Origin: a virus
IMG/VR virus record: IMGVR_UViG_3300045988_123643
DNA: 54,467 nt
Strand: one strand, 5' to 3'
Part shown: in pieces, positions 2,582 through 54,305 of the stretch
Layout of the letters: every line of letters begins with the position of its first letter
Position numbering within the stretch: the stretch's first letter is position 1
Program-made: the position numbers and the translations under genes
The notes under the pieces: model-generated
Told to the model about the DNA's origin: nothing
The model's database searches: none
What the model saw: the letters and a program-made list of their open reading frames with translations, nothing else

Positions 2582-2601
2582 AATATTTGTGTTTTGAGTT
2601 T

Positions 2602-2784: not shown

Positions 2785-2834
2785 ATATTATTTTTTTAGT
2801 TACACAATCAACTAACTAGACTCCTGAACTCAGC

Positions 2835-12232: not shown

Positions 12233-12261
12233 CTAATAACAAATCAAGAAAGGAACTAAAT

Positions 12262-12492
12262 ATGAAAACATTTGAAGGAACATATACTATTAAATGGGGT
12301 AAAAATACTGCTCCAGACATTAGACCTATTGTTTTTGATTGCGAGACAGAAGAAGAACTTAAAAAGGAGCAGCAACGTATTATTGCTGCCTATTCCAAGG
12401 GAGATGATAAGAGCTGCGCTTTTTATCAGGAATGGCATGATAATTTCCTACCACCGCATTCAATCATATTCAAAATGAGTGAGCGAAAATAA
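12262..12492 (+). CDS. Hypothetical 76-aa protein
   Basis: ORF in line with the early operon. Confidence 0.45.
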   Translation: MKTFEGTYTIKWGKNTAPDIRPIVFDCETEEELKKEQQRIIAAYSKGDDKSCAFYQEWHDNFLPPHSIIFKMSERK

Positions 12493-12516
12493 AATTGTAT
12501 TCAAAACAAATCAGAA

Positions 12517-12837
12517 ATGAATAAAATAACAGTTGATAATTCAGAATCTTATTGGGAACAGAACGTCAATTATCCTAATGACTATAACTTGATAAAAGTA
12601 GAGTATATAATGGGTAAAAGCATGATGTTTGATAAATGGGAAACAAGAATCTATGGATGGGTTCAAGAAGTGATAGTCGGTGAAAATAAAGGGAAAATCG
12701 AAGCAGGCTATCCCACTCCATACGATGAGGAAACAGGCTCGGATGCTGTTTCATTAGGTTATTTTGATAATATTGAGGATGCAATGAAAGCTGTTTTAGA
12801 AAGTAATCATCCTGATTGTAGTGGATATTATATTTAA
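12517..12837 (+). CDS. Hypothetical 106-aa protein
   Basis: ORF in line with the early operon. Confidence 0.5.
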   Translation: MNKITVDNSESYWEQNVNYPNDYNLIKVEYIMGKSMMFDKWETRIYGWVQEVIVGENKGKIEAGYPTPYDEETGSDAVSLGYFDNIEDAMKAVLESNHPDCSGYYI

Positions 12838-12938
12838 CGTATAACAATTAAGATTTTAAAGAATAGCAACTTAAAAAATAAGAACAATAAATGTGTATAT
12901 AGTGGGAGAGACATTATTTTTGGAGAGTATTATAAATC

Positions 12939-12967
12939 AAAAAATCCCGAGTCGTTTCTGACTCGGG
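12939..12967 (-). terminator. Intrinsic terminator (8-bp stem CCCGAGTC/GACTCGGG followed by a T-run on the minus strand)
   Basis: Hairpin at 12946..12967. The minus strand then reads ATTTTTT. Sits downstream of the counter-strand gene 13033..13242. Confidence 0.5.
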
Positions 12968-13032
12968 TAAGTTCTCCAACTAAAGTTATTCCATATCTTC
13001 AATTGGAGTGTTCTAGTATGTAATAGTTATAC

Positions 13033-13242
13033 TTATTCGATTATTTTTATCAATAATTCGATTAAACTAATTGTTGGTATGGGCTTGCTTGCAATTTGAT
13101 TATATACAGAAATGCTTATATATATTAATGTCCATATAATAGTTGAAAATATCGCTTGTTGTATCTTGGCGATTAGCATTTGTCTCATCCAGCCACTAAT
13201 TTTTTTTATTCTCTTAAGGAGAATGCTATAAAATTTGTTCAT
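13033..13242 (-). CDS. Small counter-strand membrane protein
   Basis: 69-aa ORF with a hydrophobic core IFSTIIWTLIYISISVY and its own terminator, embedded in a roughly 700-bp low-coding gap of the plus-strand arm. Confidence 0.4.
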   Translation of the reverse strand: MNKFYSILLKRIKKISGWMRQMLIAKIQQAIFSTIIWTLIYISISVYNQIASKPIPTISLIELLIKIIE

Positions 13243-13382
13243 ACTTTTTTATAAAACATATGTTTATCTGGATTTTTGTCAATAGCTATTGGCACTTTTA
13301 AAAAAAATATTTTAAAAAATCTCACTTTTATAAGAATGATGTTTAGGGCATCCCTCAAATTAAATCAGAAAGAAGCTAAAGT

Positions 13383-13535
13383 ATGCGAATGATAAAGAAA
13401 CAGGCTGCAAAGTTGGAAGAGCTTGAAGCTAGGCGAGAAAGGCTTGTTAATCGTGTTGCTAAACTCGATCTAAAAATCGAAGAGCAAAAAGAGAAAATAG
13501 TCCAGTATTATGGACAACAAGGTATTAACGTATAA
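13383..13535 (+). CDS. Possible 50-aa coiled-coil ORF
   Basis: Hand translation gives MRMIKKQAAKLEELEARRERLVNRVAKLDLKIEEQKEKIVQYYGQQGINV. Below the ORF-track cutoff. Confidence 0.25.
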   Translation: MRMIKKQAAKLEELEARRERLVNRVAKLDLKIEEQKEKIVQYYGQQGINV

Positions 13536-13544
13536 AAAGTAAAT

Positions 13545-13823
13545 ATGAGCAAATATACAGCAAAGCAAATAGCTGAATCTGACGAACTATTTGAAAAGCA
13601 AATACATAAAGTCAGAAAGTTTTATTTGAGTCGTAATCCCGATAAAATGATGATGCTTGAAGAAAGAAAAGCCGTCATTAAAGAACAAAATAAAGGTCTT
13701 TCCCCGGAATATGATAAGGAGTATTATTGTGGAACTTGTGGAGCTAAAGACGGTGCAGAACATCCTAAAAGTGGATATTGCTTTCACTGTGATACTGATA
13801 ACTGGATTTCAAAGAATAACTAA
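13545..13823 (+). CDS. Hypothetical zinc-ribbon protein
   Basis: CGTCG...CFHCD pair in a 92-aa ORF. Confidence 0.5.
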   Translation: MSKYTAKQIAESDELFEKQIHKVRKFYLSRNPDKMMMLEERKAVIKEQNKGLSPEYDKEYYCGTCGAKDGAEHPKSGYCFHCDTDNWISKNN

Positions 13824-13893
13824 TAATAAGTAGAAAGGAGAAAATTATGGGAGTAGATATATCAGCTCTAAAAATAAAAAAATATAGAATTAA

Positions 13894-14136
13894 ATGAGAC
13901 GTCCACAAAGTAATGGATTATTCGAAGTTGCGGGAGGTCAAGAGAAAGAGCATGGTTTCTGTTGCATGAAGCTGATTACTTTCCTTTCCGCTAATAATGT
14001 AATAAGTTGGGATGAATGGCATGGAGCTCATCTCTCTGCAATGTCAGGGAGATGTCCGTACGCTTCGCAATGTCCGATTTATGAGAGAACGATAACAGTA
14101 GTAGGTAGAAGGCCAATACAATTTAGCTTATTTTGA
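13894..14136 (+). CDS. Hypothetical 80-aa protein
   Basis: ORF only. Start is uncertain. Confidence 0.35.
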   Translation: MRRPQSNGLFEVAGGQEKEHGFCCMKLITFLSANNVISWDEWHGAHLSAMSGRCPYASQCPIYERTITVVGRRPIQFSLF

Positions 14137-14140
14137 ATTA

Positions 14141-15028: not shown

Positions 15029-15056
15029 GAGGTAGCTTATTCGGCTACCTCTTTTT
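15027..15056 (+). terminator. Intrinsic terminator at the convergence of the two arms
   Basis: 9-bp stem AGAGGTAGC/GCTACCTCT, loop TTATTCG, then TTTTT. Overlaps the last codons of the convergent AbiH-like gene. Confidence 0.6.
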
Positions 15057-16356
15057 CTGTCGGAACTAAAGGAGAACAGTTTTCTCGGTTTACAACTATA
15101 TCACGCATATTAGGCTTATTATTAAAATTGCGAGATATGTTTTTTATTAAATCAATATAGTTATCTGCCCCATCTTCATACTGTCGATAAAAGACTTTAA
15201 TTGATATGCAATTATCATGTTCAAATAAAGTATTTAATAACGTCCGATCAGAATTTCCACAAGAATGCCCCATTATAAAAATCTGATATGGGCCTAATGA
15301 AATAAAATTCAGTAGTTCTCTATAGCTTCTTGTTTTATGATAACTTATTGATTTAATATTCTCTAGAAAATCATTGTTCTGCAATTTCTCTATTTTATTA
15401 TAATCATCATCTAATTCATCACCATATCCGAATATGATGGGATTATTCTTACTGTTAAGTTCTCCATGAATATTGATGATTTCATCAATATTATGATCAT
15501 TATATAACGTTTTCGCTATTTGGGTGTAATTGAAATTCAAAAGTAATGTGTATGGTAGAAGATGAAACTTTTTAAAAGACTCATTTTTGAGTTTTTTTTC
15601 AATAAATATTATTCGGGCCTCATTTTCTGTAAGGCAGTACTTATATGTTTTATTATCAACTTTTCTATCATATTCAAATTCATCAATTGTATTAGTTTGG
15701 ACCATTTCAGCAAAAATAGAATTTACATATACAGTTTGTTTACAATTAGCAATATCGTCAAATTCTACAAAACTTGAAAAAGCGTCTTGTATAGATTGAT
15801 GTTTTGCAATTTCAGTCTTTTCTATAATTTCTGTTAAATATTTTTCTAGCAATCTTTTTACATCATCAAACTCTTTATTAAGAGTACGGATACTTTCGTT
15901 TTGCTTTTGGGGATTTTCTTCCTGAAGTAACTCTTTCAATACACTATAATATTCATTTTCTATATCTACCCAATTTACAAGAGAACATTGATGAGATATA
16001 CGCTCAAAAAAATGATTTTTGAACTTTAAATGAACTGTCACATTTGAACTAGGATCATTATTATGCTCATCAATTAGTGTATGCAATTTCCATAAAGGAC
16101 TATCTTCTTTATAAGAAGATAGTCCTTTATTAACTCCGGCTTTATCATATTCTTTTTTAATTTTTATAAACTGATCTTCATAGTCATTAAGAGGGTGTTT
16201 ACCCCCTCCTCCATATTGTTGGTCTAACAACCGCCAGTATTTATCATAAATCCCTTCTTCAACAGTAGCCCAATAATCATTTATAAAATCTTTATATCCA
16301 GTCTTTAAATTGTGAGCTAAGTCAAAACCGTTGCCAATAATTATAATTCTATTCAT
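15037..16356 (-). CDS. AbiH-family abortive-infection protein
   Basis: N-terminus MNRIIIIGNGFDLAHNLKTGYKDFINDYW matches the AbiH family signature (IIGNGFDlahgl.T.Y.dF). Confidence 0.75.
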   Translation of the reverse strand: MNRIIIIGNGFDLAHNLKTGYKDFINDYWATVEEGIYDKYWRLLDQQYGGGGKHPLNDYEDQFIKIKKEYDKAGVNKGLSSYKEDSPLWKLHTLIDEHNNDPSSNVTVHLKFKNHFFERISHQCSLVNWVDIENEYYSVLKELLQEENPQKQNESIRTLNKEFDDVKRLLEKYLTEIIEKTEIAKHQSIQDAFSSFVEFDDIANCKQTVYVNSIFAEMVQTNTIDEFEYDRKVDNKTYKYCLTENEARIIFIEKKLKNESFKKFHLLPYTLLLNFNYTQIAKTLYNDHNIDEIINIHGELNSKNNPIIFGYGDELDDDYNKIEKLQNNDFLENIKSISYHKTRSYRELLNFISLGPYQIFIMGHSCGNSDRTLLNTLFEHDNCISIKVFYRQYEDGADNYIDLIKNISRNFNNKPNMRDIVVNRENCSPLVPTEKEVAE

Positions 16357-17546: not shown

Positions 17547-18050
17547 TTATTTTAGGTATATATACACAAACACCCCTATAGCAATAAAAATAATGATTAC
17601 ATATATTTTATCTTTATGTAAATCCCACCAAGATAGTTCAATAACCTTCTCTCTTTGATTTAGTAAAGCATTCACCTTATTATTTATAGTATCAAGTCGA
17701 TTCGAGAACTGCTGCAAGGTAATGGATAATGTTTCATCAACTTCAGTCCTTTCCTGTTCTTGCTTAGAAACTTTAGTTATACTTTCTTTGACTACGTGCT
17801 GTTTACCGGCTGAATCCGGCGCTGAAAGATAAACAGTCGTATTCTCAATCTTAAGATCACTTAACCGATCATTTACAATCTTCGTTTGCTTACTAAGACC
17901 TATACGCAACTCTTCCATTACTTTCCGTAGATATTGAAATTCACCGGAGTAATCAGTTTGCTTATGCGTCTCAATATTGCGAGAAGACTTGCAGGACGAT
18001 AACCATATTGCTGACGCCAGCAAAATGATAATGTAGATTAATCGCTTCAT
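17547..18050 (-). CDS. Unimolecular spanin candidate (N-terminal lipoprotein signal plus C-terminal TM)
   Basis: Lipobox LLASAIWLSSC at the N-terminus, coiled-coil middle, C-terminal TM IYVIIIFIAIGVFVYIYL. ATGA overlap with the amidase gene. Confidence 0.55.
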   Translation of the reverse strand: MKRLIYIIILLASAIWLSSCKSSRNIETHKQTDYSGEFQYLRKVMEELRIGLSKQTKIVNDRLSDLKIENTTVYLSAPDSAGKQHVVKESITKVSKQEQERTEVDETLSITLQQFSNRLDTINNKVNALLNQREKVIELSWWDLHKDKIYVIIIFIAIGVFVYIYLK

Positions 18051-18541
18051 GGTCGGATAACAGTATTACGCAAGAAATTAGGGAATTCGGAGCGTACATC
18101 AAAACAGGGGCACGCCTTGATATATTCTTTCGGCTCTACCTCACCGCTGCCGTCCAGATCCGGAGAAGCATCACGGTGTCCAAGCACTTCAATTATAAGA
18201 TATTCCTTACAGAGCTTTGCTACCAGCTCACGTAAACTAGCTCTTTGAGCGGGTGTCCGTGTATCAGCAGGTTTTCCGTTCGCATCAAGTCCACCGATAT
18301 AGCAGATACCTATCGAATGCTTATTGTATGATATGCCAGAGAATCCCTTTGTGCTACAATGCGCCCCATCGATGCTTAACGACCGTCCATCCTCAACCAT
18401 TCCGTCAAGGTCAATGATGAAGTTATAACCGATCTGGCTGAATCCCCTTTGTTTGTGCATCCGGTCAATATCCTTCGCACGTAAATCTTGCTCGGCACGT
18501 GTTGCTGAGCAATGGATGATAATAGCATCAATTTTCTTCAT
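18047..18541 (-). CDS. N-acetylmuramoyl-L-alanine amidase endolysin (Amidase_2/PGRP type)
   Basis: IIIHCSATRA...GYNFIIDLDG...GAHC...NKHSIGICYIGG are classic Amidase_2 motifs. Confidence 0.85.
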   Translation of the reverse strand: MKKIDAIIIHCSATRAEQDLRAKDIDRMHKQRGFSQIGYNFIIDLDGMVEDGRSLSIDGAHCSTKGFSGISYNKHSIGICYIGGLDANGKPADTRTPAQRASLRELVAKLCKEYLIIEVLGHRDASPDLDGSGEVEPKEYIKACPCFDVRSEFPNFLRNTVIRP

Positions 18542-18672
18542 TTTTTCTCCTCCTTATTCTTTGTTATTGGGCCAATCTTTACCAAATTGACACGGAAAAT
18601 GATAGCTATCAAAATGGCTGTTCCTAGCCAATGCCAAGAATCTTGAAAAATAAACTCCAATACTTCAATCAT
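18538..18672 (-). CDS. Possible 44-aa single-TM lysis accessory protein (holin partner or antiholin)
   Basis: Hand translation gives MIEVLEFIFQDSWHWLGTAILIAIIFRVNLVKIGPITKNKEEKK. ATGA overlaps with both the holin stop and the amidase start. Confidence 0.4.
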   Translation of the reverse strand: MIEVLEFIFQDSWHWLGTAILIAIIFRVNLVKIGPITKNKEEKK

Positions 18673-19127
18673 TTTGCACCTCCTTTTTGTAAGTAGTTCG
18701 TTAGATAAGGGATATTCTTTATAAACTCGACACTTAATACATAGTGCAAGAAAGCTACCACCTTGTAACCATTGCTAGAGTTAGGGAGAATTTCTTTGAT
18801 ATTCCTCAGAATATTTACCCCGTAGAAATAGAAAACGCTATACGTAATAAATGAGACACATTGAAGTGCACCTTCCGGATTTCCTTTGTGTTCACCAATA
18901 AAATAGATACAACTAACTAAGGCAAAGAAAATAGTTGCTTCTACGATGCATCTCCAAGCCTTTTTAAAAGAAAAGCTTTCATGATTGATTAGTAGGGCAG
19001 TAAGAAGCCCACAAATGAAGTTGAGGGCAAATACTGCAATAAGGCTTTTGATCTCCCCAGAGATAGGATTGAGATAGGCAGCTATGCCGGTAATCAATCC
19101 AATAAGTAGGTTTTTGAAATAATCCAT
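18669..19127 (-). CDS. Holin candidate (multi-TM)
   Basis: 152-aa protein with four hydrophobic helices, immediately upstream of the endolysin. Confidence 0.6.
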   Translation of the reverse strand: MDYFKNLLIGLITGIAAYLNPISGEIKSLIAVFALNFICGLLTALLINHESFSFKKAWRCIVEATIFFALVSCIYFIGEHKGNPEGALQCVSFITYSVFYFYGVNILRNIKEILPNSSNGYKVVAFLHYVLSVEFIKNIPYLTNYLQKGGAK

Positions 19128-19754: not shown

Positions 19755-22700
19755 TTAATATTGTGAACACTCTACAATCATTCCTTTTATAATGTGAATC
19801 TTCATGTTTTTAGAGGCAATACCATCTAATTGATTATTTTTAAGTCCATAAAGCCATGCATCGGATACGACTGAAACAGAATTTCCACTATTGTCTTGAG
19901 GAAAAAAGCCCCTGGCGGAAACATCACCTAATACAGTAACATTACCATCGAAGAAACCTGCGTAAACGTAGTTCGATGGATAAGTCGGATTTGTCTTTGA
20001 TGAACCATATATCGCTGCACTACCACCAGCATTTGCTCCGATTGCTGCTACTCCAAAGCGCCCGTCTGTAGCGGGATTGAAGATCACATTAACAACGCCC
20101 TCTTTAGATGTTCCGGACCCTAATTTTAAGCTACGTGACGTCCCACCGAAATAATCGGAACGTGTCCAAATAAGACGTCCTTTTTCAATAGTAAATCCAC
20201 CTACAAATCCAACCTCAGCATCAATTCGTCGTACTTTAATCAAGTCAGTATTAAGATAACCTCCTATGATAATAGTACTACCGAGCTGCGCAGCTTCAAC
20301 GGCATCTTTAAAAGCCAATCCGCCTAAACCGTCTCTGTCTACTTTAGAATTAATCACCGTCTGCAGATCACTATGAAGCGCAGTAATAGTAACAGCACCT
20401 TCCAAATTGATCTTAGATGAATGGATTGTTGTTGCTCCAGCTGCTTGGTTGATATAAGATATAAGCGTATTTCCATTTTCCAGTTCTTTAGAAGCATATA
20501 TCCTGTTACCGTCTGCAGTGGTAATCCATCCGGCTGTATCAATACGTTGTGTAATGCTATCTACACGTGTTACTTGTGCGGATATTCTATCGCTCAATAT
20601 ATCTAATTCTGCCTTGTTATCGTCGGCGAACTGTTTGAGCGCATCCTGTATTGATTGATTAGCTGCTTCGACGGCTGTATTGAAACTGGCTAAAGTTGAG
20701 TTAAAGAGAGCGAATTTATCATCAACGTTTTTTTTCTCTGCAGTAGTGGTCTGTCCGTCAGCAATAGCAACGTTGATTGCTGCGAGGAGATTGTCGATAG
20801 CCCCAAAGAGAGAGATTTTAGCATTGAGTAGGTTAGTCTTGGCAACACCGACCAAATAAGTATTTACATACAGCTTGTTGTATGTTGCTTCGACAGAGGC
20901 TTTCGTATTCTTGACTGTATTGATATATTTCTCAATAGCTTTAGCTTCTGCTTCTGATATAATACCGTCGGCAAACGCACCGTCTACATATTCATGTAAA
21001 TCACTAACATCACCGTTTACTTTTTCAGCGGCTTTTGTCGCATCTGCCGCATCCTGTAACGCTTCCAGTGCTTTTTTCATAGCATCATCGGCGAAAGACT
21101 TTAACTTGTCTTGTATGGACTTATTAGCTTCTTCGACAGCAGTATTAAAGTCAGCATAAGCATTGTTGAAGCTTGCAAACTGTGTATCAACAGCCTGTTT
21201 TTCGTCTGGAGTAGTAAGCTTGTCTGCAATGGCGGTATTTATTGCATTTATCAATCTTTCTATGGAGCCCATCAGCGTAACCTTTGCATTAAGCAGGTTT
21301 GTTTTTGCGACTCCGGTTAAGTATGTATTTACATACAGCTTGTTGTATGTCGCTTCTACAGCTGCTTTTGCATTGTTAACTGTGTTGATGTACTTTTCGA
21401 TAGCACTAGCTTCCGCCTCGGATATTACACCGTCAGCAAATGCACCATCTACATAATTATTTAGATTGGATACTGCATTGTTTGCTTCGCTAGCACTCTT
21501 GGCTGCCGCATTGGCTGCTTCCATAGCAGCAGTGGCCTCTCTTAGTGCTTCTTCTGAATAACCTTTCAAGGCATCGTGTATCGCTTTATTTGCTGTTTCT
21601 ACGGCAGCGGTGAAGTCGGCATACGCAGAATTAAACAGGACATACTTATCATCAACGTCTTTCTTTTCTGCTACGGTTGTCTGCCCGTCGGCAATGGCGG
21701 TATTGATAGATTTGATAAGGTTCTCAATGCTTCCCATCAGCGTAACCTTTGCATTGAGCAACCCGGTTTTGGCCGTTCCTGAGAGATAAGGATTTACATA
21801 CAGTTTATTGTATGTCGCTTCTACAGCTGCTTTCGCATTGTTTACTGTGTTGATATACTTTTCGATAGCTTTAGCTTCCGCCTCAGTGATAATGCCGTCA
21901 GCAAATGCACCGTCGATATAGTCATGCAGACCTCCCACAGCATCGTTTGCATCAGCTGCAGACTTCTGAATAGAATCGATCAGATCGCTTACTTCAAGCC
22001 ATTCTTCCAAATTCTCTAATCCGGAGGAGCCTGCTTTAATTTGGATATTTCCACCTATTTCTCCTTTAACCAGGTCGAAGTATGTCTTTCCGTCCGGTGA
22101 GATGATTCGTTCAGTTGTTACGCGGCCCGGCAGAATTTCAGTGAATCCATACAACTCAACGAAGCTGCGTTCACCTTCATACTCACTGTTTAGGATACCA
22201 GTTAGTAAGTGATAATATCCTGCTATCTGTTCTATTTTGATAGCTGTTTCACTGAGAAGGAATGTGCCGGTCTGATTCTCCTTGCTGCATACAGCATACA
22301 GATAATATTTCTTCTCTGGGGCAATGAGCGCCGGAGAATTATATTCAGCCATATCCCAAAATTTGTATTCGCTAGCTTTGTGTTCAGACGACACAGTTTT
22401 TATCCCTAGCGTCATATGTTGGATAATGCCGGCAGGCGAATGTAGAACTTTAGTACTGATATTGTAAGTAATGTTATGCGATACTTGTACCGGGACTGCT
22501 TTTGATCTGACAAAGCGGAACTGCAAACTTTCATCACCTACGAGTAACTGCATCGTCTGTATAGTGATGGGATTTATTGAACCGGAGAAGTTCAATAAAG
22601 CATCTTCAAGCATGGACATAGTTTCTTTTGCATCACGAAAACGGCGTTTGGTAAATCGCAAAGAATCTTTATACTTGATATCTACGTCTACTTCATTTGT

Positions 22701-24182
22701 CTCGATCTTATCTAATTCGCTGGTTACGGAAGTACCAACTGGATCATTTGATAATTCTATTTCCGGAGAATAAGGGTTGTTCACATAACGTTTAATTCCT
22801 ATCATGCGAATAAGTGAACCTTTTGGATGAAACTGGGTATCGGAGAAGTTTACATAACCACCCAGCACAATCTTGCCGCCTATTTCTAACCAACGCTTCT
22901 TTGCCCAGATACCGTCCAATGTCCCGGTAAATACGAATGATTTATCTTCATGCTCAAAGAGGTATTTAGCAGCTTCCTTAAACACTTCCCAGCTAGCGCC
23001 TGTCTGCTCTTCATCATTACAGATATATGAGTACGGTAGCTGGATACCAAATACTGCGTAGGTATCGCCAGTCTTAGGATGCCAGACATCAGGTTCCGGC
23101 ATAGTGATACCGTCGATTTCCTGTGGAACTATTTCAAAACGTCTACCTGCTTTCTCTATTTCTCCATCCTCTTTAAGAATGGGCTCATGGATATACTTGA
23201 CTTCAAACTCTTTGCCTGTCAGTATACCTGTTTGGAAGATAACGGTCATAGTTTCTCCGGCTATCAAACATTTCTTAAAATCAAGATCGTTAGGTATATC
23301 GCTATCTACAAAATCATAGAAGTTATTCTCCTTATTAACCTCAATAACAGAGCTAACAGTACCAACGCGAGAAGGATAGATTGCAGTGCAGTCTAGACTA
23401 TCCTCTTTACCTGTAACTAGGCTTTTATCAGCACGCATGACGCTGATTCCATCCGCATCTGTTATGTACGTCCTGCCTTCATAAACAAGAGTCTTAGCCT
23501 TTGGAAGTAATAGATATTTAGCTCCGTATGTCGAGTAATTGATATTTCGATCAGAAGTTTCTACGAGGACAATTTCGGGCGGTATATCTCCGGATTCCCG
23601 GCCAACCCCGACCTTGAAACCGTGTCCTTTACCATACGACAGTTTCAAAGGATTATTCTTGTTATATTCAACCTTACGAAGATGAACTGTTTTGTCAGTT
23701 ATCTGCCATTCAGTTTCATACGTATCTGCAAGTTGATTAAGGGCATCAAGAATATATGTGTGATTATAGTTGATGACTTTATCCGTTCCTTCGATGCAGT
23801 CACCTATTTTCCAACCAATATCGCGACGATTTAGGTTCTCAACGAGTAGTCGCAGGTGTTCATGTGCTTTAGCTGTATATGCGAATTTGATACTATTATC
23901 TGCAATATGACGAACTTTCCACATCATAGCATCCGCTTTTGCCGTTTCAAGTATAAGCGTATATTCAAAGTTGCGCTCACCTTTCTTTTTGAAGTTACTA
24001 TCTTTTTTGAGAGAATAACGTTTTCCGTAGAAGTCACACCAAGTTCCGACCTGTATTTCTAAGTATCCAGGATAGGAAAAATACAAATTAAGTGTATCCT
24101 CTGCCATGATCGCTTCGTAAGAGTAACTTTCGTCCTTTACATCGAGCTTTATTTCCTTGCTACCATTATATAGAATTATCAT
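19755..24182 (-). CDS. Tal-like tail tip/host-specificity protein with 2.8 copies of a 155-aa internal repeat
   Basis: N-terminal region typical of siphophage tail-associated (prophage tail endopeptidase-like) proteins. The repeat DGAFADG[IV]I[ST]EAEA.AIEKYINTV...KLYVN.YL occurs three times. 1475 aa. Confidence 0.7.
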   Translation of the reverse strand: MIILYNGSKEIKLDVKDESYSYEAIMAEDTLNLYFSYPGYLEIQVGTWCDFYGKRYSLKKDSNFKKKGERNFEYTLILETAKADAMMWKVRHIADNSIKFAYTAKAHEHLRLLVENLNRRDIGWKIGDCIEGTDKVINYNHTYILDALNQLADTYETEWQITDKTVHLRKVEYNKNNPLKLSYGKGHGFKVGVGRESGDIPPEIVLVETSDRNINYSTYGAKYLLLPKAKTLVYEGRTYITDADGISVMRADKSLVTGKEDSLDCTAIYPSRVGTVSSVIEVNKENNFYDFVDSDIPNDLDFKKCLIAGETMTVIFQTGILTGKEFEVKYIHEPILKEDGEIEKAGRRFEIVPQEIDGITMPEPDVWHPKTGDTYAVFGIQLPYSYICNDEEQTGASWEVFKEAAKYLFEHEDKSFVFTGTLDGIWAKKRWLEIGGKIVLGGYVNFSDTQFHPKGSLIRMIGIKRYVNNPYSPEIELSNDPVGTSVTSELDKIETNEVDVDIKYKDSLRFTKRRFRDAKETMSMLEDALLNFSGSINPITIQTMQLLVGDESLQFRFVRSKAVPVQVSHNITYNISTKVLHSPAGIIQHMTLGIKTVSSEHKASEYKFWDMAEYNSPALIAPEKKYYLYAVCSKENQTGTFLLSETAIKIEQIAGYYHLLTGILNSEYEGERSFVELYGFTEILPGRVTTERIISPDGKTYFDLVKGEIGGNIQIKAGSSGLENLEEWLEVSDLIDSIQKSAADANDAVGGLHDYIDGAFADGIITEAEAKAIEKYINTVNNAKAAVEATYNKLYVNPYLSGTAKTGLLNAKVTLMGSIENLIKSINTAIADGQTTVAEKKDVDDKYVLFNSAYADFTAAVETANKAIHDALKGYSEEALREATAAMEAANAAAKSASEANNAVSNLNNYVDGAFADGVISEAEASAIEKYINTVNNAKAAVEATYNKLYVNTYLTGVAKTNLLNAKVTLMGSIERLINAINTAIADKLTTPDEKQAVDTQFASFNNAYADFNTAVEEANKSIQDKLKSFADDAMKKALEALQDAADATKAAEKVNGDVSDLHEYVDGAFADGIISEAEAKAIEKYINTVKNTKASVEATYNKLYVNTYLVGVAKTNLLNAKISLFGAIDNLLAAINVAIADGQTTTAEKKNVDDKFALFNSTLASFNTAVEAANQSIQDALKQFADDNKAELDILSDRISAQVTRVDSITQRIDTAGWITTADGNRIYASKELENGNTLISYINQAAGATTIHSSKINLEGAVTITALHSDLQTVINSKVDRDGLGGLAFKDAVEAAQLGSTIIIGGYLNTDLIKVRRIDAEVGFVGGFTIEKGRLIWTRSDYFGGTSRSLKLGSGTSKEGVVNVIFNPATDGRFGVAAIGANAGGSAAIYGSSKTNPTYPSNYVYAGFFDGNVTVLGDVSARGFFPQDNSGNSVSVVSDAWLYGLKNNQLDGIASKNMKIHIIKGMIVECSQY

Positions 24183-24235
24183 ATTGTCTGATTAGAATTA
24201 TAATCTAAAATATAATCAGGTATGTGTTTTTAATG

Positions 24236-24763
24236 CTATTCAAATAATAGTTTTTCCGGATAACCTACTGTGTAATCATACTCTTCAATCTGCGACACGA
24301 TATACATCTTTTTTATAGCTGCAAGATGCATCTGTGTCACATTATAGCAGTCGAGGGCATATAATTCTAGAGAATTTAACATTGCTAATGCGTTAAGAAT
24401 AGGAATAGTATACTTCACACCATCGAACCACAACACTGTTTCGGTCCTTCCCATGTCTTGTTCTATTAAAATAGAGTTCTTCAAACCAACTCGAGTATCC
24501 TTATCAAGCCACATTTCTTTCCCACTCAAAGTAAACGAATTAACCGCCTTTGACTTGTCATACAGCAAGATACGATTTACCTTCATTTCTTTTGTTTCAT
24601 CAATGGAATACTCATGTTCTACCAAAATGGGAACACCATTATCACCTTCGTAAATTTCTTTTCCTTCAGACTGACCTTCTAACAAATCATTGTAATAGTC
24701 GTCCTCAATTTCTACCGAACCCTTAATTGGTTCATCGTAAAATCCTTGTTTCCAGTATTTCAT
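24236..24763 (-). CDS. Tail-fibre assembly/chaperone-like protein (DUF4376-like)
   Basis: 175-aa ORF directly downstream of the fibre locus. The pattern ...FTLSGKEMWLDKDTRVGLKNSI... resembles DUF4376 proteins as I recall them. Confidence 0.45.
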   Translation of the reverse strand: MKYWKQGFYDEPIKGSVEIEDDYYNDLLEGQSEGKEIYEGDNGVPILVEHEYSIDETKEMKVNRILLYDKSKAVNSFTLSGKEMWLDKDTRVGLKNSILIEQDMGRTETVLWFDGVKYTIPILNALAMLNSLELYALDCYNVTQMHLAAIKKMYIVSQIEEYDYTVGYPEKLLFE

Positions 24764-24798
24764 AATACATTCATTTAGTTATTTGTTTATATAAAATT

Positions 24799-24821
24799 AG
24801 TTCTCTTGGTACTACGTACGC
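24799..24821. repeat. Inverted repeat, left: AGTTCTCTTGGTACTACGTACGC
   Basis: 21/23 identical to the reverse complement of 25480..25502. Confidence 0.85.
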
Positions 24822-25149
24822 AAAATCTGACTTTTCAAATGTTGGAACTAAGTCACTTGGGCAAAACGGTTATTATAAGTTTCCTGACGGCCTGCTTATT
24901 CAATGGGGAAAAAAGACGAGTGGCACTTACTCTGGAACAATATATTTCCCCTCTTCATTCTATGACACAAATTATTCTCTGCACTTGACTTGTAATAATG
25001 GAAATACAGGTAATGATTCATCGTGGATAGCTAACTATACTTCTGTTTCAACTGGTTCTTTTGGATATAATAATAAATATCAGCAAGCTGCCAATGCAGG
25101 TTCTAATACAGCCTCTTTCTATTGGTTTGCTATTGGTCGTTGGAAATAA
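24799..25149 (+). other. Silent alternative tail-fibre C-terminal cassette (116 codons plus stop, no start codon, no Met at all)
   Basis: Open frame AGT TCT CTT GGT...TGG AAA TAA translating to SSLGTTYAKSDFSNVGTKSLGQNGYYKFPDGLLIQWGKK...ASFYWFAIGRWK*. Collinear with the last 116 aa of the fibre (SSLGTTYALKDFSNIGVKSLGQNGYRKYDDGLLIQWGYS...IAFYWFAIGRWK*). Absent from the ORF track because it has no start codon. Confidence 0.8.
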
Positions 25150-25186
25150 GGTTACTTCCAACGACCAATAGCGAACCAATAAAAAG
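25115..25186. repeat. 31-bp-arm imperfect palindrome at the tail-to-tail junction of the two fibre cassettes
   Basis: CTTTCTATTGGTTTGCTATTGGTCGTTGGAA (25115..25145) versus the reverse complement of 25156..25186 (29/31), with a 10-nt loop ATAAGGTTAC. Both arms encode FYWFAIGRWK. Confidence 0.85.
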
Positions 25187-28100
25187 CTATACTAAATCCT
25201 CCAGCATCAGTATCAACATTTTGATAAACGGAATCCATTATAAAATAAGATGCATATTTATTAAAGACATCAAAAGAATAGATGTAATTACTATGTACTT
25301 TTCTAGTTCCAGTTAATAGAATAGTGTAATTACTATCATAAAAGGTCGTATTAAGATAAACGGTTTTACCTATCCCGGAAGTACTTGAGTACCCCCATTG
25401 AATAAGCAGACCATCATCATATTTACGATAACCGTTTTGTCCAAGCGATTTGACTCCGATATTAGAGAAATCTTTCAAAGCATACGTAGTTCCAAGAGAA
25501 CTTAGTACACTCTTTTCCTCATCCGTCATAAACTTCTTATTTGTCACTTCTGTTATGTCTGAAGCAGAATGTGAATGTGACGCGGCAGCATAACTTCCCT
25601 TAGGCTGATAAGTTGAGTCATGATTATGATCCTTTTCAGCTTTACCATTCCATGTACTTTTTTCCGTATCAGAAACAAAACGGTGAGTAGCATCCGGAGT
25701 CACTTCAGTAGCAACATGGCTATGTGATGAAGGAGCATAACTGCCTTTAGGCTGATAAGCAGAGTCATGATTGTGGTTGCCGGCTGCTTTACTATTCCAA
25801 GTAGATTTTTCCGAATCAGTTACGAACCTATGTGTTGAATCAGGAGTCACATCACTAGCTGCATGATTATGTGATGAAGAAGCATAGTTGCCAGCAGGCT
25901 GATATACTCCGGAATGGTTGTGATTCCCTGCAGCCTTACTGTTCCATGTGCTTTTTTCAGAGTCAGAAACAAATCTATGTGTTGAATCAGGTGTAATATC
26001 AGCAGCATCATGAGTATGTGATGCGTCAGCATAATCACCGAGGGGTTGATAATCTGCATCGTGGTTATGATTAGAAGGAGAGGCCCCGACTTCGCTTGCG
26101 GTGTAACTCGGTTTATTGGCAGTCTTTGCCCATGCGGGCACGTCGCTTGCCGGCATTGAAGTTGGGAAGTCGCTAATATCTACTTTCTTGTGTGTATGAG
26201 CTAACGGAGTTCTTGCATTACTTAAGCGGGCATCATTACCTTCGCATACAGATCCGGCAGCCGTACCAAAATCTTTATTAAAAGCCGTTTTTTTAGTAAA
26301 TGCAGGCTCATAAGTACCCGCATGATTGTGATTTGAAGAAGAAGCGCCAACTTCGCTCGCTGTATATGAAGGTTTGCTAGATGCTTTCGCCCAATCTGGC
26401 ACATCGCTTGCCGGCATCGAAGTAGGAAAATCACTGATCTCAGATTTCTTGTGAGTATGTGCTTTCGGTGTACGAGCATCACTTAAACGAGCATCGTTAC
26501 CTTCGCATACAGTCCCGGTAGCACTACCAAAGTTCTTATTAAAGGCTGTGTTCTTAGTGAATGCGGGTTCATAAGTTCCAGTATGGTTATGATTAGTAGG
26601 AGAGGCCCCGACTTCGTTTGCGGTGTAACTCGGTTTATTGGCAGCCTTTGCCCATGCGGGCACGTCACTCGCCGGCATTGAAGTTGGGAAGTCGCTAATA
26701 TCTGCTTTCTTATGTGTATGAGATAACGGAGCTCTTGCATTACTTAAGCGGGCATCGTTACCTTCGCACACGGTTCCGGCAGCCGTACCGAAATTCTTAT
26801 TGAAGGCAGTTAGTTTAGTAATAATCTTCTCATATACTGTATCGTGATTATGTGCATCCAGAGCAGCTTTCAATGCCTTACCCTGTTCAGCAGAAAGAAC
26901 CTTACTAGTCTCCCCGGTCGTCAGATTATTAACGATATCAGTTATATTGAGCTTTTTCCCTAACTCTGTTGCCATAGTTGCTGCAAAGTTCGGATCATTA
27001 TTAAGTGCGTTCGCTAACTCAATCAATGTATCAAGAGCGTCCGGAGCACCGGCTACCAATTTGTCGATAGCTGCTTGCACTTTAGCGTCAACACCGGATA
27101 CTGCATTGTTAGCGGCCAATGCTGCTGCATTGGCATCATCCGTTGCTTTTTTCGCTAAACCAGTCTGTGTTACAGATGCATTTTTAGCTGCGTTTGCATC
27201 ATCCGTTGCTTTCTTTGCCAGAGCTGTTTGGGCTTCTGAAGCTGTTTTAGCAGCATTGGCGCCTGCCGCCGCAGTAGTAGCAGCTTCTTTTGCTGCATTG
27301 ACACTACCAGCAGCAGTATTAGCCGCATCCGTAGCTTTTTTTGCTAGCTCTGTTTGTGTTACAGACGCATTCTTTGCAGCATTCGCATCGTCAGTGGCCT
27401 TCTTTACAGTATCTAGTTGAGCAGTAGCATCTTCCGTAGCAGATGCCATTTCTTGCACAATACCGGCATACTCAGACTTACGTTGAGACTCTGCTTCTAC
27501 ACGCTCTGTTTCAGCATTCACGCGTTTTGTTTCGTTTGATCCGCGAAGAGTTTCAGCAGATTTTCGGGCCTCTTCATTCTGCTTTCTTGTATTTTCAGCA
27601 GAGGAACGAGCTGTTTCAGCAGTGGTCCGGGAAGTTTCAGCAGCCTTTCTTTTGTTTTCCTCCGACGCCCGGTCTGCTTCCGTAGACTTACGAGCGGTTT
27701 CGGCAGATACGCGTTCGGATTCTGCCGTGCCCCTGGCGGTCTCGGCTGCCACACGAGAAGTTTCATTCGTTTCCCTTGTGACTTCAGCTTCTTTCCGTTT
27801 TTCTTCTGCTGTTACACGGTCTAATTCAGCAGTAGAACGAGTCGTTTCAGCCGTTTTGCGCTTATCTTCTTCCTTCACACGTTCCGATTCAGCAGAGGAA
27901 CGCCCGCTTTCGGCTGTTTTACGAGTTTCTTCATTGCTTTTGCGTGTTTGTTCATCAGAGACACGTTTATTTTCTGTGTCCACACGACTGGTTTCAGCCG
28001 TAACACGCTTTCCTTCTGCGGTCGCGCGAGCGGTCTCAGCCGTTTTACGGGCATCCTCATTCTGTATTCTTGTATTCTCAGCAGAGGAACGAGCTGTTTC

Positions 28101-28697
28101 AGCTGAGACACGTGCTTCTTCGACTGTTACCCGTTTTCCTTCTGCGGTAACTCTAGCAGACTCGGCAGACTTACGAGCTGTTTCGGCAGATACGCGTTCG
28201 GATTCTGCCGTGCCTCTGGCAGTCTCAGCATTCTTTCTCGTTTGCTCATTAGATTCGCGTGTACCTTCGGCTGTTACTCGCTTACCTTCTGCGGTTACAC
28301 GATTACTTTCAGCAGAGGAACGTCCAGTTTCAGCCGTTTTGCGAGCATTCTCATTAGTGATACGCACTGATTCAGCAGCTTCCCGGGCCTGTTCTTCTCT
28401 TGAGCGTCCCGTTTCAGCTGTCTGCCTTGATTGCTCGGAAGCGTTACGACGAGACTCAGCAGTTTCACGAGTTGATTCATTCTCTTCAACGGCAGCTTCT
28501 AATTGCCGCATATCGGTAGTAGCGGTTTTGGCATCGCTCGTAGCTTTGAGCATATTATCTAAGGCTGTCTGCATCTTCTCTAGCCCGAATTTAAGGCTGG
28601 TCTTAACACCGCTGACAATTCGATAGCCGATGGTGTAGAAGCCTTTCATGTCGCTGGCTTCGTTCAACTCTGATATTCTTTTCTTTTTTAATGGCAT
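25152..28697 (-). CDS. Tail fibre, 1181 aa, built from four nested repeat classes plus a C-terminal receptor-binding tip
   Basis: Contains 48 uninterrupted [ST][AN]ExxRx heptads, Ala-rich AKKATDDANAAKNASVTQT repeats, three 86-aa repeats, about four 47-aa repeats carrying HxH motifs, and a C-terminal GLLIQWG...FYWFAIGRWK domain. Confidence 0.85.
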   Translation of the reverse strand: MPLKKKRISELNEASDMKGFYTIGYRIVSGVKTSLKFGLEKMQTALDNMLKATSDAKTATTDMRQLEAAVEENESTRETAESRRNASEQSRQTAETGRSREEQAREAAESVRITNENARKTAETGRSSAESNRVTAEGKRVTAEGTRESNEQTRKNAETARGTAESERVSAETARKSAESARVTAEGKRVTVEEARVSAETARSSAENTRIQNEDARKTAETARATAEGKRVTAETSRVDTENKRVSDEQTRKSNEETRKTAESGRSSAESERVKEEDKRKTAETTRSTAELDRVTAEEKRKEAEVTRETNETSRVAAETARGTAESERVSAETARKSTEADRASEENKRKAAETSRTTAETARSSAENTRKQNEEARKSAETLRGSNETKRVNAETERVEAESQRKSEYAGIVQEMASATEDATAQLDTVKKATDDANAAKNASVTQTELAKKATDAANTAAGSVNAAKEAATTAAAGANAAKTASEAQTALAKKATDDANAAKNASVTQTGLAKKATDDANAAALAANNAVSGVDAKVQAAIDKLVAGAPDALDTLIELANALNNDPNFAATMATELGKKLNITDIVNNLTTGETSKVLSAEQGKALKAALDAHNHDTVYEKIITKLTAFNKNFGTAAGTVCEGNDARLSNARAPLSHTHKKADISDFPTSMPASDVPAWAKAANKPSYTANEVGASPTNHNHTGTYEPAFTKNTAFNKNFGSATGTVCEGNDARLSDARTPKAHTHKKSEISDFPTSMPASDVPDWAKASSKPSYTASEVGASSSNHNHAGTYEPAFTKKTAFNKDFGTAAGSVCEGNDARLSNARTPLAHTHKKVDISDFPTSMPASDVPAWAKTANKPSYTASEVGASPSNHNHDADYQPLGDYADASHTHDAADITPDSTHRFVSDSEKSTWNSKAAGNHNHSGVYQPAGNYASSSHNHAASDVTPDSTHRFVTDSEKSTWNSKAAGNHNHDSAYQPKGSYAPSSHSHVATEVTPDATHRFVSDTEKSTWNGKAEKDHNHDSTYQPKGSYAAASHSHSASDITEVTNKKFMTDEEKSVLSSLGTTYALKDFSNIGVKSLGQNGYRKYDDGLLIQWGYSSTSGIGKTVYLNTTFYDSNYTILLTGTRKVHSNYIYSFDVFNKYASYFIMDSVYQNVDTDAGGFSIAFYWFAIGRWK
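25480..25502. repeat. Inverted repeat, right (inside the fibre gene): GCATACGTAGTTCCAAGAGAACT
   Basis: Reverse complement AGTTCTCTTGGAACTACGTATGC. Encodes SSLGTTYA in the fibre reading frame. Confidence 0.85.
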
Positions 28698-28702
28698 GGC
28701 TT

Positions 28703-28924
28703 CTATACTTTTTCTATTTTTACTTTTCCGCGATTGACAAACACAGACAATTTATTATCAGTAATATGCTCACAAAGAGACATATCTGATAATGTACAAG
28801 TTGCTATACAATCACAAATTTCATAAAGGGAACATTTGTGACATTTGAATCCTTCCAGGTCCCATTGTATCGCCTCATGATACTCTCCTTTAATTACGAT
28901 TCCATTTATTTCTTTTTCATTCAT
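28703..28924 (-). CDS. Hypothetical Cys-rich 73-aa protein
   Basis: Seven Cys (CHKC...CDC...C...C) in a 73-aa ORF between Dit and the fibre. Confidence 0.45.
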   Translation of the reverse strand: MNEKEINGIVIKGEYHEAIQWDLEGFKCHKCSLYEICDCIATCTLSDMSLCEHITDNKLSVFVNRGKVKIEKV

Positions 28925-35874: not shown

Positions 35875-35973
35875 AATTTCATCAAGGAGCCTAGCCCGTT
35901 GTACTTCCGGGCAATACTTCCGGTTATTTGCAACTAACCTTCAATACTTTCAGCTCCATCCTTCAATAGTTTG

Positions 35974-36047
35974 TTCCTGTAGGCGGAATCGAACCGCCGG
36001 TCTCTACATAATCAATGTAGCGCTTTAACCAACTGAGCTATACAGAA
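35974..36047 (-). tRNA. Phage-encoded tRNA, 74 nt, anticodon GAU by standard numbering (Ile), with atypical U1:A72 and U37
   Basis: Cloverleaf by hand: acceptor TTCTGTA/TACAGGA, D arm GCTC-AGTTGGTTA-AAGC, anticodon arm CTACA-TTGATTA-TGTAG, variable AGACC, T arm GGCGG-TTCGATT-CCGCC, discriminator A. No encoded CCA. Confidence 0.8.
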
Positions 36048-53054: not shown

Positions 53055-54305
53055 TCAGTCTTTTTTTTCTTCTTTTTTCTGTAATAAATCCAATACAGTG
53101 CGATTTGCTTTATCACAAATGCTATAATCTATATCAATGTAGATGTCAGCCATCTTATAATCATTATTCACATGACCGAGACAGAAGTCAATGTCTGCCT
53201 TCGGTACTCCGGCTTTATTTCTTGCCAAGCTGGCCCAGCTGTGGCGGGCCCAGTTCGTGGTGATTTTGAAGTCGAGTTCTAGATTCAGACAAATATCTTT
53301 CAGCCCATTATTGATTGCTCGCATGAAATTATTCAGGCTACAATAATTAGTATGAAAGTAGGAGAGGAAATACCCCTCTGTGTATTTATCGAGCAGGACG
53401 CGAAGCTCTGGCTCAATCTTGACGGAAAGCGGTACCTGTTCGTGATTCTTCTCTGTATTCGTTTTAGAACGCGTATATTCCAGTCTTCCGCGGCGTTCAC
53501 ACGAAATGCTATATAGGTCATTGATGTTGACTCCCATCATGTAGAACATCATCATAAAGACATCACGTGCCATATTAGTGCGTTTTTTATCAGATTGGAA
53601 ATCCCTGATCTTTAGCAAGGTAATGATATCTATATTCTTTCGTTTTCTCCGGTACTCCGGTATCTCAGCCTTTTTGAACGGATCGCCTGGGATTCTTATA
53701 ATATCAAAGTCCTCATTGTTGTAATAGAGCTTGGCTTTGTTATACAATGCTCTCAGTCCTCTAAGGTAATGGCTTATTGTGCCCGGTTCTAAGGGAATGC
53801 CGGCAGGACCGGAGTGATATAAGTCTTTGATCATCTTATTTAGCAGAAATGAGGTGATTAGCTTAATATCTATCTTCTTTCTTTTTGTGTACCAACATAG
53901 TGTATCAATAGAAGAGCTATACCATTCAGCTGTCTTTTTCTTTTTCGTCTGAATTACTATGTTTTGAGCGAACTCTACGAAGTCTATAAACTCGGCGTCA
54001 GGAGCTAGGGATTTCTCTATTTCTTCTTTTAAATCCTTGCATGACATAAACTGAGTTCTTTCTTGTCCTAGCTTTAAATACTCTCTCCGGATCTTTTGGA
54101 TATATGCATTGATCTCATACTCTATCATTTCTCCATTTGCCACATTAGGCAAGATCCGGCCGACTCCATCCATTCCTTCAGGTTGAATGAAATAACAAGT
54201 GGCTATATACTGTGACTCTCTATTGTGATAGATTCTAATTTTAATATTTGATGTTCCATCTTGTTTTAGATGTCCCTTAAATACAATTGCTTTAAATGTT
54301 GCCAT
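53055..54305 (-). CDS. int: Tyrosine recombinase/integrase (Bacteroidota phage type with an N-terminal arm-binding-like domain)
   Basis: C-terminal catalytic pattern ...ARHSWASLARN...LGHVNNDYKMADIYIDIDY (R, HxxR, H, Y). The N-terminal MATFKAIVFKGHLKQDGTSNIKIRIYH is typical of this integrase class. Confidence 0.9.
   Translation of the reverse strand: MATFKAIVFKGHLKQDGTSNIKIRIYHNRESQYIATCYFIQPEGMDGVGRILPNVANGEMIEYEINAYIQKIRREYLKLGQERTQFMSCKDLKEEIEKSLAPDAEFIDFVEFAQNIVIQTKKKKTAEWYSSSIDTLCWYTKRKKIDIKLITSFLLNKMIKDLYHSGPAGIPLEPGTISHYLRGLRALYNKAKLYYNNEDFDIIRIPGDPFKKAEIPEYRRKRKNIDIITLLKIRDFQSDKKRTNMARDVFMMMFYMMGVNINDLYSISCERRGRLEYTRSKTNTEKNHEQVPLSVKIEPELRVLLDKYTEGYFLSYFHTNYCSLNNFMRAINNGLKDICLNLELDFKITTNWARHSWASLARNKAGVPKADIDFCLGHVNNDYKMADIYIDIDYSICDKANRTVLDLLQKKEEKKD

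Follow-up and report, generated by a model that had tools for sequence, protein, structure and literature searches.

A two-tip inversion segment in the tail-fibre gene of a Bacteroides temperate phage lacking a dedicated invertase gene

The window, the whole 54,467-nt stretch of IMG/VR virus record IMGVR_UViG_3300045988_123643, is the genome of a temperate siphophage of Bacteroides type. Its tail-fibre gene ends in an invertible 704-bp segment (24799..25502) that holds two alternative fibre tips, tip A, which is joined to the constant shaft and expressed, and tip B, which is start-less and silent. Both orientations of this segment were found among close relatives, and inversion occurs in nature. 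The locus very probably is, or recently was, an active inversion switch in the lineage, and probably also in this particular genome. The best explanation as a whole was a tip inversion switch operated in trans by a host recombinase of the Tsr0667 family, to which a probability of about one half was assigned. The first-pass annotation of the sequence had already pointed to a candidate host-range switch at this locus and, as a hypothesis only, to a host invertase.

The invertible segment and its natural isomers

The features of the locus are listed below, where L001 is the metagenome contig of a relative and IR stands for inverted repeat.

24799..25502, no strand assigned: invertible segment, 704 bp, matched by L001 45-748 in inverted orientation
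25152..28697, minus strand: tail-fibre gene, 1181 aa, comprising the constant shaft and the expressed tip A; Pfam Phage_fiber_rpt and Gp53-like_C, PHROG tail/tail-fibre families
25503..28697, minus strand: constant shaft, ending ...KKFMTDEEKSVL just ahead of the crossover site; a flank kept in relatives whichever tip is fused
25152..25502, minus strand: expressed tip A, 116 codons plus stop; Pfam PF21882 Gp53-like_C; neck helix, then beta-sandwich in the model
24799..25149, plus strand: silent start-less tip B, 116 codons plus stop; Pfam PF21882 Gp53-like_C, E 4.8e-15
24799..24821, plus strand: left IR, with the core site AGTTCTCTTGGTACT at 24799-24813, fitting AGTYYYN4GDACT
25480..25502, minus strand: right IR, with the core site AGTTCTCTTGGAACT at 25488-25502, dyad AGTTC-TCTTG-GAACT
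25115..25186, no strand assigned: tail-to-tail palindrome, 35-nt arms, 91 %, from the conserved 3' ends of the tips (FYWFAIGRWK-stop)
24236..24763, minus strand: tail-fibre-assembly-like gene, 175 aa; phrog_188 'tail fiber assembly protein', E 1.1e-7, N-terminal part only

Translation of the plus strand gave an uninterrupted tip B frame without Met, as annotated. The accompanying claim that this frame had neither an ATG nor an alternative start held for Met but failed for the alternative start, since an in-frame TTG at 24985 yielded a mechanical 54-aa open reading frame (ORF) within it. The frame was open from 24766, 11 codons upstream of 24799. Alignment of the complete tip B with the C-terminal 116 aa of the fibre showed 48 % identity (E 5e-33), and the collinearity, conserved ends and divergent middle noted earlier were reproduced, with conservation confined to the N-terminal ~38 aa and the C-terminal FYWFAIGRWK. 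The two tips lay tail to tail, 2 nt apart, and the Gp53-like_C match was better for the silent tip B than for the expressed tip A. The 23-mers of the IRs were complementary at 21 of 23 positions and stood in the same codon phase (AGT TCT CTT GG.), again as described, whereas 40 dinucleotide shuffles of 24000..26500 gave inverted 23-mer matches of 17-20 positions at best. A second inverted repeat of 80 nt (76 %) was located just inside the 23-mers.

When 5.8 billion proteins were searched with the silent tip, 294 matches were obtained, nearly all of which were 'proteins' of 107-202 aa from Bacteroides genomes and gut metagenomes. Similarity began exactly at SSLGT, behind unrelated N-termini, in 16 of the 16 short matches whose sequences were read. 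One example was the B. faecis copy of the cassette, which was annotated by NCBI as a free-standing 126-aa 'gp53-like domain-containing protein' (P0001) and whose first residue fell on an ATT codon of the window sequence. Judged from these sequences, the short gp53-like mini-proteins are silent tip cassettes whose starts were called spuriously, and they amount to a systematic artefact of annotation.

In two of the matches, P0002 and P0006, the window's silent tip type was fused to the shaft. The contig encoding P0002, L001, was ~94 % identical to the window. Flipping 24799..25502 in silico made 2552 bp of the window collinear with L001, and the breakpoints fell precisely on 24799 and 25502; in the unflipped window, the 704-bp piece matched L001 in reverse only. 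Pattern scans of IMG/VR and metagenomes provided ~40 further copies of the same locus. Four tip types (A-D) were present at the two-tip locus, in the following arrangements.

A expressed, B silent: 18 contigs
B expressed, A silent: 3 contigs
C expressed, A silent: 3 contigs
A expressed, C silent: 2 contigs
A expressed, D silent: 3 contigs (D expressed: 0)

Tip A was silent in L001, L036, L204, L027, L082, and L190. In the first three of these, tip B was fused in frame to the shaft, which is the outcome that the first-pass annotation had predicted for an inversion, with the silent tip joined to the shaft and the current tip silenced. The comparison of relatives proposed there likewise revealed both orientations, without mismatches otherwise, together with further cassette variants. 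L001, with tip B expressed, and L028/L068, with tip A expressed, showed mismatches at 0/44 positions of the shaft, 0/704 of the segment after flipping, and 0/1500 downstream. The corresponding values were 0/600, 0/704, and 0/654 between L036 and L004, and 0/600, 0/704, and 0/123 between L036 and L022. Five contigs (L001, L048, L192, L195, and L200) ended inside the repeat or at most ~30 nt from it; mixed orientations break assemblies in this way, and these ends are consistent with inversion without proving it.

The silent cassettes were intact in nearly all of ~170 copies. Decay of the silent cassette in relatives, which had been named as the sign of a fossil duplication, was not the general state, and altered copies were noted in L196 and L199. 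In L196 (VOFK01001866.1, 5821-6520), frameshifts cut both tips to 31 and 33 aa, and the segment measured 700 bp against 704. The silent tip of L199 (3568) had a shifted stop and a length of 123 aa. L197, a contig of 1.7 kb and low coverage, carried one and the same flank at either end of the segment. These oddities represent either lineage decay or assembly errors at the invertible repeat. In the sublineage of L197, L198, L199, and L211, the segment and assembly gene were followed by a membrane protein gene and a 455-aa integrase-like gene (L198 5524-6891), which replaced the usual 1475-aa tail protein. The L198-type arrangement may be a truncated prophage or another inserted element.

The tip was modelled with AlphaFold (AF2) from the last 150 fibre residues, with a mean pLDDT of 79.5 and block means of 82-96 for residues 51-150. 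The model was composed of a helical neck containing S-S-L-G-T and a following beta-sandwich. The best Foldseek matches in the PDB were 4mtm (E 1.4e-5), the gp53 fibre of Acinetobacter phage AP22, and structures of the C-terminal part of R1/R2 pyocin fibres, and a PDB sequence search with the last 315 fibre aa gave no match. The fold prediction suggested in the first-pass annotation thus yielded, for the expressed tip, a model whose fold is that of the distal, receptor-binding domains of fibres. Within the cassette, the variable middle lies in the beta-sandwich domain, and the neck and final strand are made up of the conserved ends. Because the variable middle lies in the modelled receptor-binding domain, inversion likely changes receptor specificity, and hence host range.

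The palindrome between the tips was predicted by RNA folding to form a hairpin at the stop codon of the fibre mRNA (-64.2 kcal/mol, z -13.4), which was the same in either orientation. No T-tract terminator was called at 25115-25186. The hairpin could affect mRNA stability or read-through into the assembly-like gene. This gene adjoined the segment in relatives too, and since it lies outside the segment in the window, it would serve both tips.

The crossover site and the multi-cassette family

The site was analysed in 82 distinct contexts. The sole DNA conserved among them was (C)WA followed by AGTTCTCTYGGDAC, of which AGTTCTCTYGGDAC was invariant. Each cassette started with the site AGTTCTCTTGG(A/T)ACT, which encodes S-S-L-G-T. 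The Ser codons were AGT in 82/82 and TCT in 81/82 contexts, despite six-fold degeneracy, and the third position of the Gly codon (position 11) was A, G or T, never C. The invariance of AGTTCTCTYGGDAC and the frozen Ser codons indicate that the constraint acts at the DNA level. The conserved core measured ~14-17 bp and had the dyad AGTTC-N5-GAACT, with a conserved cassette-side arm and a variable other arm. By its sequence, this layout is of the tyrosine-recombinase core type.

The base at IR position 12 (position 11, 0-based) stayed with the tip in isomer pairs of both two-tip and multi-tip lineages. Because this base travels with the tip, strand exchange was placed within the first 11 bp, AGTTCTCTYGG. 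The rest of the window 23-mer (ACGTACGC) merely encodes T-Y-A of these tips and was not conserved, and identity between partner sites in distant relatives extended over only ~17-21 bp. Within the window, AGTYYYN4GDACT matched at the two IRs only, where 0.68 matches were expected.

From sequence comparison, the window represents the smallest version, with two tips, of a shufflon-like family that is widespread among temperate siphophages of Bacteroides. The multi-cassette relatives, more distant prophages known from B. ovatus, B. thetaiotaomicron, and B. finegoldii records, carried 2-6 tips, with two opposed fibre-assembly genes inside the invertible region. The counts reached 63 distinct tip proteins of about 30 types. 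One cassette set was found in three arrangements in L122, L123, and L124 (set L122-L125), and the same was true of L303, L305, and L359. Between L303 and L305, the flanks were 99.96-99.98 % identical, and a 1759-bp segment was 100 % identical and inverted. Only inversions were seen among the direct and inverted sites of these relatives. The relatives thus show the multiple inversions of a shufflon, and the window has one segment that can adopt two states. The known phage genome collection gave no DNA match to the region. When the tip was searched by tblastn against known phages, only distant proteobacterial fibres were recovered, and no BV01-type or other Bacteroides phage record matched.

Candidate recombinases

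The two 118-nt ends of the window (1-118 and 54350-54467) were identical, which indicates a circular, complete phage genome of ~54.35 kb (54,349 bp). Two of its features bear on the choice of enzyme.

53055..54305, minus strand: tyrosine integrase; Pfam Arm-DNA-bind_5, Phage_int_SAM_5, and Phage_integrase; the sole recombinase gene found in the genome
12004..14139, plus strand: early-region module without recombinase, replacing the rec293 module of relatives; synteny breaks against L218 8686-10772

The integrase gene was located 28 kb from the segment. When 35 of the larger ORFs of the window were scanned against Pfam, PHROG, and NCBIfam, no other recombinase was detected, in agreement with the first-pass annotation. 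A query for a Gin-like serine invertase found nothing by six-frame tblastn in the window or in any shufflon locus, and the same search detected serine recombinases in L238 and L242, which served as a positive control. A hidden serine invertase was rejected on the basis of these scans and searches. No match was obtained in the window by tblastn with a BT2267-type recombinase or with rec293, a tyrosine recombinase of close relatives. In the relatives examined (called genes, and tblastn with five recombinase queries), no recombinase was found within ~10 kb of the cassettes, except rec293 in window-type loci and integrase-like genes in L198 and L343.

A host enzyme was proposed because the genome has no dedicated invertase and the site fits the motif of Tsr0667/BT2267. 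Tsr0667 is reported to act on three SusC/SusD clusters and nine other regions (PMC4747536). BT2267 is ~80 % identical to Tsr0667, and the B. thetaiotaomicron IR AGTTCTGCAAAGACTTTGCAGA was assigned to the Tsr0667 motif and to BT2267 (10.1101/2025.06.24.661302). When read on the opposite strand, this IR matched AGTYYYN4GDACT, and it did so in 81 copies spread over many Bacteroides species. The absence of C at the D position of the motif in the 82 phage sites agrees with the same motif. BT2267-type genes were present in representative genomes of B. faecis MAJ27, B. thetaiotaomicron, B. xylanisolvens, B. salyersiae, and others, at 70-93 % to the L172 protein, and prophages of the window's lineage sit in B. 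faecis genomes. Furthermore, shufflon phages with very different integrases shared the same site, as in L343, whose integrase-like match (cut by the locus end) was 24 % identical to that of the window.

A recombinase of this type was also encoded by a phage. In phage BS-TP2 (PQ571275.1; L188/L189), the recombinase gp3 (1708-3000) was 51 % identical to the BT2267/Tsr0667 type and followed right after the tail genes. The tail-protein switch adjoining it has AGTTCTTCCAGTACT sites. The inverted sites, ATCAGTTCTTCCAGTACT and ATCAGTTCTTCCAGAAGT (..GAAGT), were located at 56763-56777 and 575-589, ~1.36 kb apart. They bracket alternative bodies of the small tail-module protein gp85 (56724-57194), whose 20-aa N-terminus (..ASVLEEL) could be joined to either of two homologous bodies of ~135 aa. 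From its sequence, the BS-TP2 locus looks like a second, undescribed phage inversion switch.

The mechanism proposed for the window is a conservative site-specific inversion. The two homologous cassettes, placed tail to tail, each begin with the same site in the codons of the neck helix, and strand exchange in the first 11 bp of the inverted sites would flip the 704-bp segment. The shaft (..EEKSVL) would then join the other tip in frame, and the former tip would be left without a promoter or start. The single fibre-assembly gene outside the segment would serve both states. The host Tsr0667-family enzyme would act in trans on the phage inside the cell, for the most part at the prophage stage, so that a lysogen population would release virions with either tip. 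A host Tsr0667-family recombinase is the leading candidate for the enzyme, at slightly less than an even chance. More tentatively, the Bacteroides temperate phage family may have handed its host-range switching to the host global tyrosine invertase (Tsr0667/BT2267), the enzyme that shuffles SusC/SusD, with a 15-bp site in the S-S-L-G-T codons being sufficient.

Several points weigh against this explanation. The evidence for inversion came entirely from comparison between assemblies. The window's own sublineage, with the IR variants ..ACGTATGC and GGT.., comprised ~7 contigs, all of which had tip A expressed. The host assignment of the window was indirect. NCBIfam returned for the BT2267-type protein generic Xer/integron matches below the cut-off and none specific to Tsr0667, so the family assignment rests on literature and context. 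The motif AGTYYYN4GDACT, which Nakayama-Imaohji and co-workers are said to have described in 2009 for Tsr0667 of B. fragilis, was checked indirectly, and a literature text search for this motif string gave no match. The recombinase inspection covered about three quarters of the multi-cassette phage genomes, and the rest may hold a distant phage-encoded recombinase. Finally, the flipped two-tip examples of known recombinase status, the L036 contig and the L001 lineage (the L009 contig), all belonged to lineages that carry rec293, so rec293 could be the invertase there.

The last point leads to the strongest rival, in which rec293 is a dedicated, phage-encoded invertase. This arm-less tyrosine recombinase (254-293 aa, a SAM-like and a catalytic domain) is encoded beside the VRR-NUC gene in the early region of close relatives. 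The window would have lost it by a 2.1-kb module replacement, and its switch would be frozen on tip A or would be flipped only with a co-resident related prophage. At the syntenic place of L218 8686-10772, the window indeed has a non-homologous module (12004-14139) of unrelated small ORFs, and its sublineage was seen in one orientation only. rec293 was detected in 235 IMG/VR stretches, among them the contigs of L009, L022, L027, L036, and L082 (L027 13625-14389), and it is without an arm-binding domain, like simple invertases and resolvases. However, rec293 was missing from its syntenic position in 12 shufflon loci spanning the same VRR-NUC..SNF2 interval, and L303 and L305, which belong to them, are exact inversion isomers. 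The core site was identical in all lineages, and no site-like motif was found near the rec293 gene. The association of rec293 with the two-tip locus is confounded by common descent, the phages being ~94 % identical, and the proportion of flipped loci, 0/7 in the window sublineage and 3/14 elsewhere, did not differ significantly. The rec293-centred loci mostly stopped just short of the cassettes, and the amidase-centred loci were usable only for the class 'shufflon present, rec293 absent'. The reverse class, 'rec293 present, shufflon absent', was discarded, as it consisted of phages with a different gene order. The rec293 explanation was judged unlikely for the window. Because of the 12 loci without rec293, the exact isomers there, and the single site in all lineages, the host Tsr0667-family enzyme was ranked above rec293, followed by the integrase and general recombination.

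The phage's own tyrosine integrase is an improbable catalyst of the inversion. It is the only recombinase in the complete genome, and it is a member of the broad class of Bacteroidota tyrosine recombinases that also includes the BT2267-type enzymes (22 % identity, the same three domains). Its putative attachment site is of another kind. A tRNA 3' fragment (anticodon stem to acceptor end, minus strand) was located at ~214-262, between the integrase and the first gene, and was not called by ARAGORN, as expected of a partial gene. This fragment is likely, from its sequence and position, the attP core for integration into a tRNA gene, and it had no similarity to AGTTCTCTTGGAACT. An attachment site resembling the IR was also ruled out as a candidate, with only two good site copies in the window. 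In addition, relatives with the same inversion site had unrelated or very divergent integrases (24-25 % in L343), and the portal-centred loci of close relatives held no window-like integrase and no recombinase match of any kind, so that they give limited information on the integrases of relatives. The arm sites normally needed by arm-type integrases were not evident.

A still weaker explanation dispenses with a programmed switch. The silent tip would be a fossil left by a duplication in inverted orientation or by mosaicism of the fibre gene, and rare flips would be produced by homologous recombination through RecA or the phage RecT (6217..7149). The RecT gene is present, the tips share the 80-nt stretch of 76 % identity, and L196 and L199 have the truncated tips and the altered stop described above. 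Against this, the silent cassettes were almost always intact, and the exchange always fell in the same 11 bp, even where partner sites shared so little identity in distant relatives. The synonymous positions of the site were frozen, and identical isomer pairs recurred in several independent lineages. A fossil origin was considered very improbable. The host global serine invertase Mpi, which the first-pass annotation had tentatively brought in through an ACGTACG core, was rejected as the least credible candidate, because this stretch (IR positions 16-22, matching 7/10 of the motif ARACGTWCGT, with 6/10 for ACGTATG in the second arm) consists of the codons T-T-Y-A of these tips, is missing from the majority of related sites, where the tips begin with TN.., TK.. 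or TT.., and lies downstream of the crossover in bp 1-11 that the position-12 polymorphism defines.

Genome context, related systems, and significance

The late genes of the window occupy the minus strand and run from the tape measure through the tail protein, the 73-codon ORF, and the fibre to the 175-aa, 1475-aa, 152-codon, and 164-codon genes. Those not listed above are as follows.

28703..28924, minus strand: 73-codon ORF between the tail protein and the fibre
19755-24182, minus strand: 1475-aa tail protein in the late region, after the assembly-like gene
18669..19127, minus strand: 152-codon ORF, corresponding to the holin-like gene of relatives
18047..18541, minus strand: 164-codon ORF, corresponding to the Amidase_2 gene of relatives

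The early region encodes, in addition to RecT, an SNF2 helicase and a VRR-NUC nuclease. The 1475-aa tail protein contained three tandem units of ~130 aa (..DGAFADGIITEAEAKAIEKYINTVNN..). The fibre shaft contained many AETAR/SAE-type heptad-like repeats and several His-rich NHNH.. modules. The fibre length among relatives was 989-1181 aa, a spread that suggests gain and loss of repeat units.

A tRNA-Ile gene (anticodon GAT) was located at 35973-36047 on the minus strand, among the late genes. An AbiH-family abortive-infection protein (15037-16356, E 2.4e-24), whose copy number differed among relatives, and a DUF4062 protein (1481-2581) are likely products of defence or moron genes. The coding regions 46275-47126, 50074-51372, and 51775-52890 encode a TET-associated glycosyltransferase (TAGT, E 1e-31), a PcfJ-like protein, and a DNA polymerase III beta clamp. 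The presence of a TAGT gene in the phage may hint at hypermodification of DNA bases.

The locus shares its logic with the G segment of Mu (Gin), the C segment of P1 (Cin), the P element of e14 (Pin), and the Min system of p15B, in which alternative fibre C-termini are likewise placed on a constant N-terminal part and the silent copy is start-less. The two opposed fibre-assembly genes inside the segment of the multi-cassette relatives resemble U/U' of Mu, and the occurrence of several isomers resembles p15B. Mu/P1-type systems have a serine invertase next to the segment, crossover sites of their own (26-bp gix/hix type), and a Fis-bound enhancer. In contrast, no serine recombinase was found in the window genome, and its site is a 15-bp dyad of tyrosine type. 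Unlike that of Mu, the window segment holds two tips only, and the assembly gene lies outside it. To our knowledge, invertible fibre segments, which have been textbook material since Mu and P1, have always been accompanied by an adjacent invertase. The new element here is a fibre-switch logic built on a tyrosine-type site, with no dedicated enzyme in a complete phage genome.

The R64 shufflon (Rci, sfx, PilV C-termini) likewise produces multiple inversions of adhesin C-termini, and its sfx sites, too, have a core with a conserved cassette-side arm and a variable other arm. Rci adjoins its shufflon, whereas no recombinase of this kind lies beside the cassettes here, and the target here is a phage fibre rather than the tip of a conjugative pilus. 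As far as we know, the sequence of the sfx site is unrelated to the AGTTCTCTYGGDAC site. The regions controlled by Mpi in B. fragilis are promoters on which a host master invertase also acts in trans at many loci, but this enzyme is of the serine type, and conservation at the site does not extend to the Mpi motif.

The regions of Tsr0667 (BF0667) and BT2267 belong to the same host genus, their IRs fit AGTYYYN4GDACT, and coding sequence is recombined in them. Both enzymes act at a distance, on loci without their own recombinase (PMC4747536; 10.1101/2025.06.24.661302). Their known targets are chromosomal surface-protein loci, and no phage target was reported in the papers searched. In a BV01-like temperate phage of Phocaeicola vulgatus, cassettes at the distal end of the fibre gene were shuffled by inversion, and all configurations were present in reads (preprint of 2026, PMC13596623). 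The 10-bp core of that system, TGGGAGAACT, shares GAGAACT (7 bp) with CCAAGAGAACT, the reverse complement of the window site. The BV01-like shufflon is flanked by a recombinase, and its cassettes are non-homologous with different stop positions (PMC13596623), whereas the window has neither a flanking recombinase nor the core TGGGAGAACT, and its tips are of another family. Programmed inversions of phage fibre genes are known in general (PMC9881135), and the literature searched contained no description of the gp53-like tip system or of a phage shufflon without a recombinase.

Hundreds of mini-ORFs annotated as 'gp53-like domain-containing protein' were present in public Bacteroides genomes and gut metagenomes. 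The many that were inspected were silent fibre tips; tips of at least 30 types were found, with up to 6 tips per phage. The silent cassettes account for one group of mis-annotated ORFs, and the system explains assembly breaks that recur. Host prediction for these gut prophages should weigh every cassette rather than the expressed tip alone. If rec293 is the invertase, the window would be a natural locked variant without recombinase, which would be useful as a control. The locus provides a testable case of a phage that would depend on a phase-variation enzyme of its host. If the host-enzyme explanation is true, phage tropism and phase variation of the host surface would be driven by one recombinase, and the two could be mechanistically coupled.

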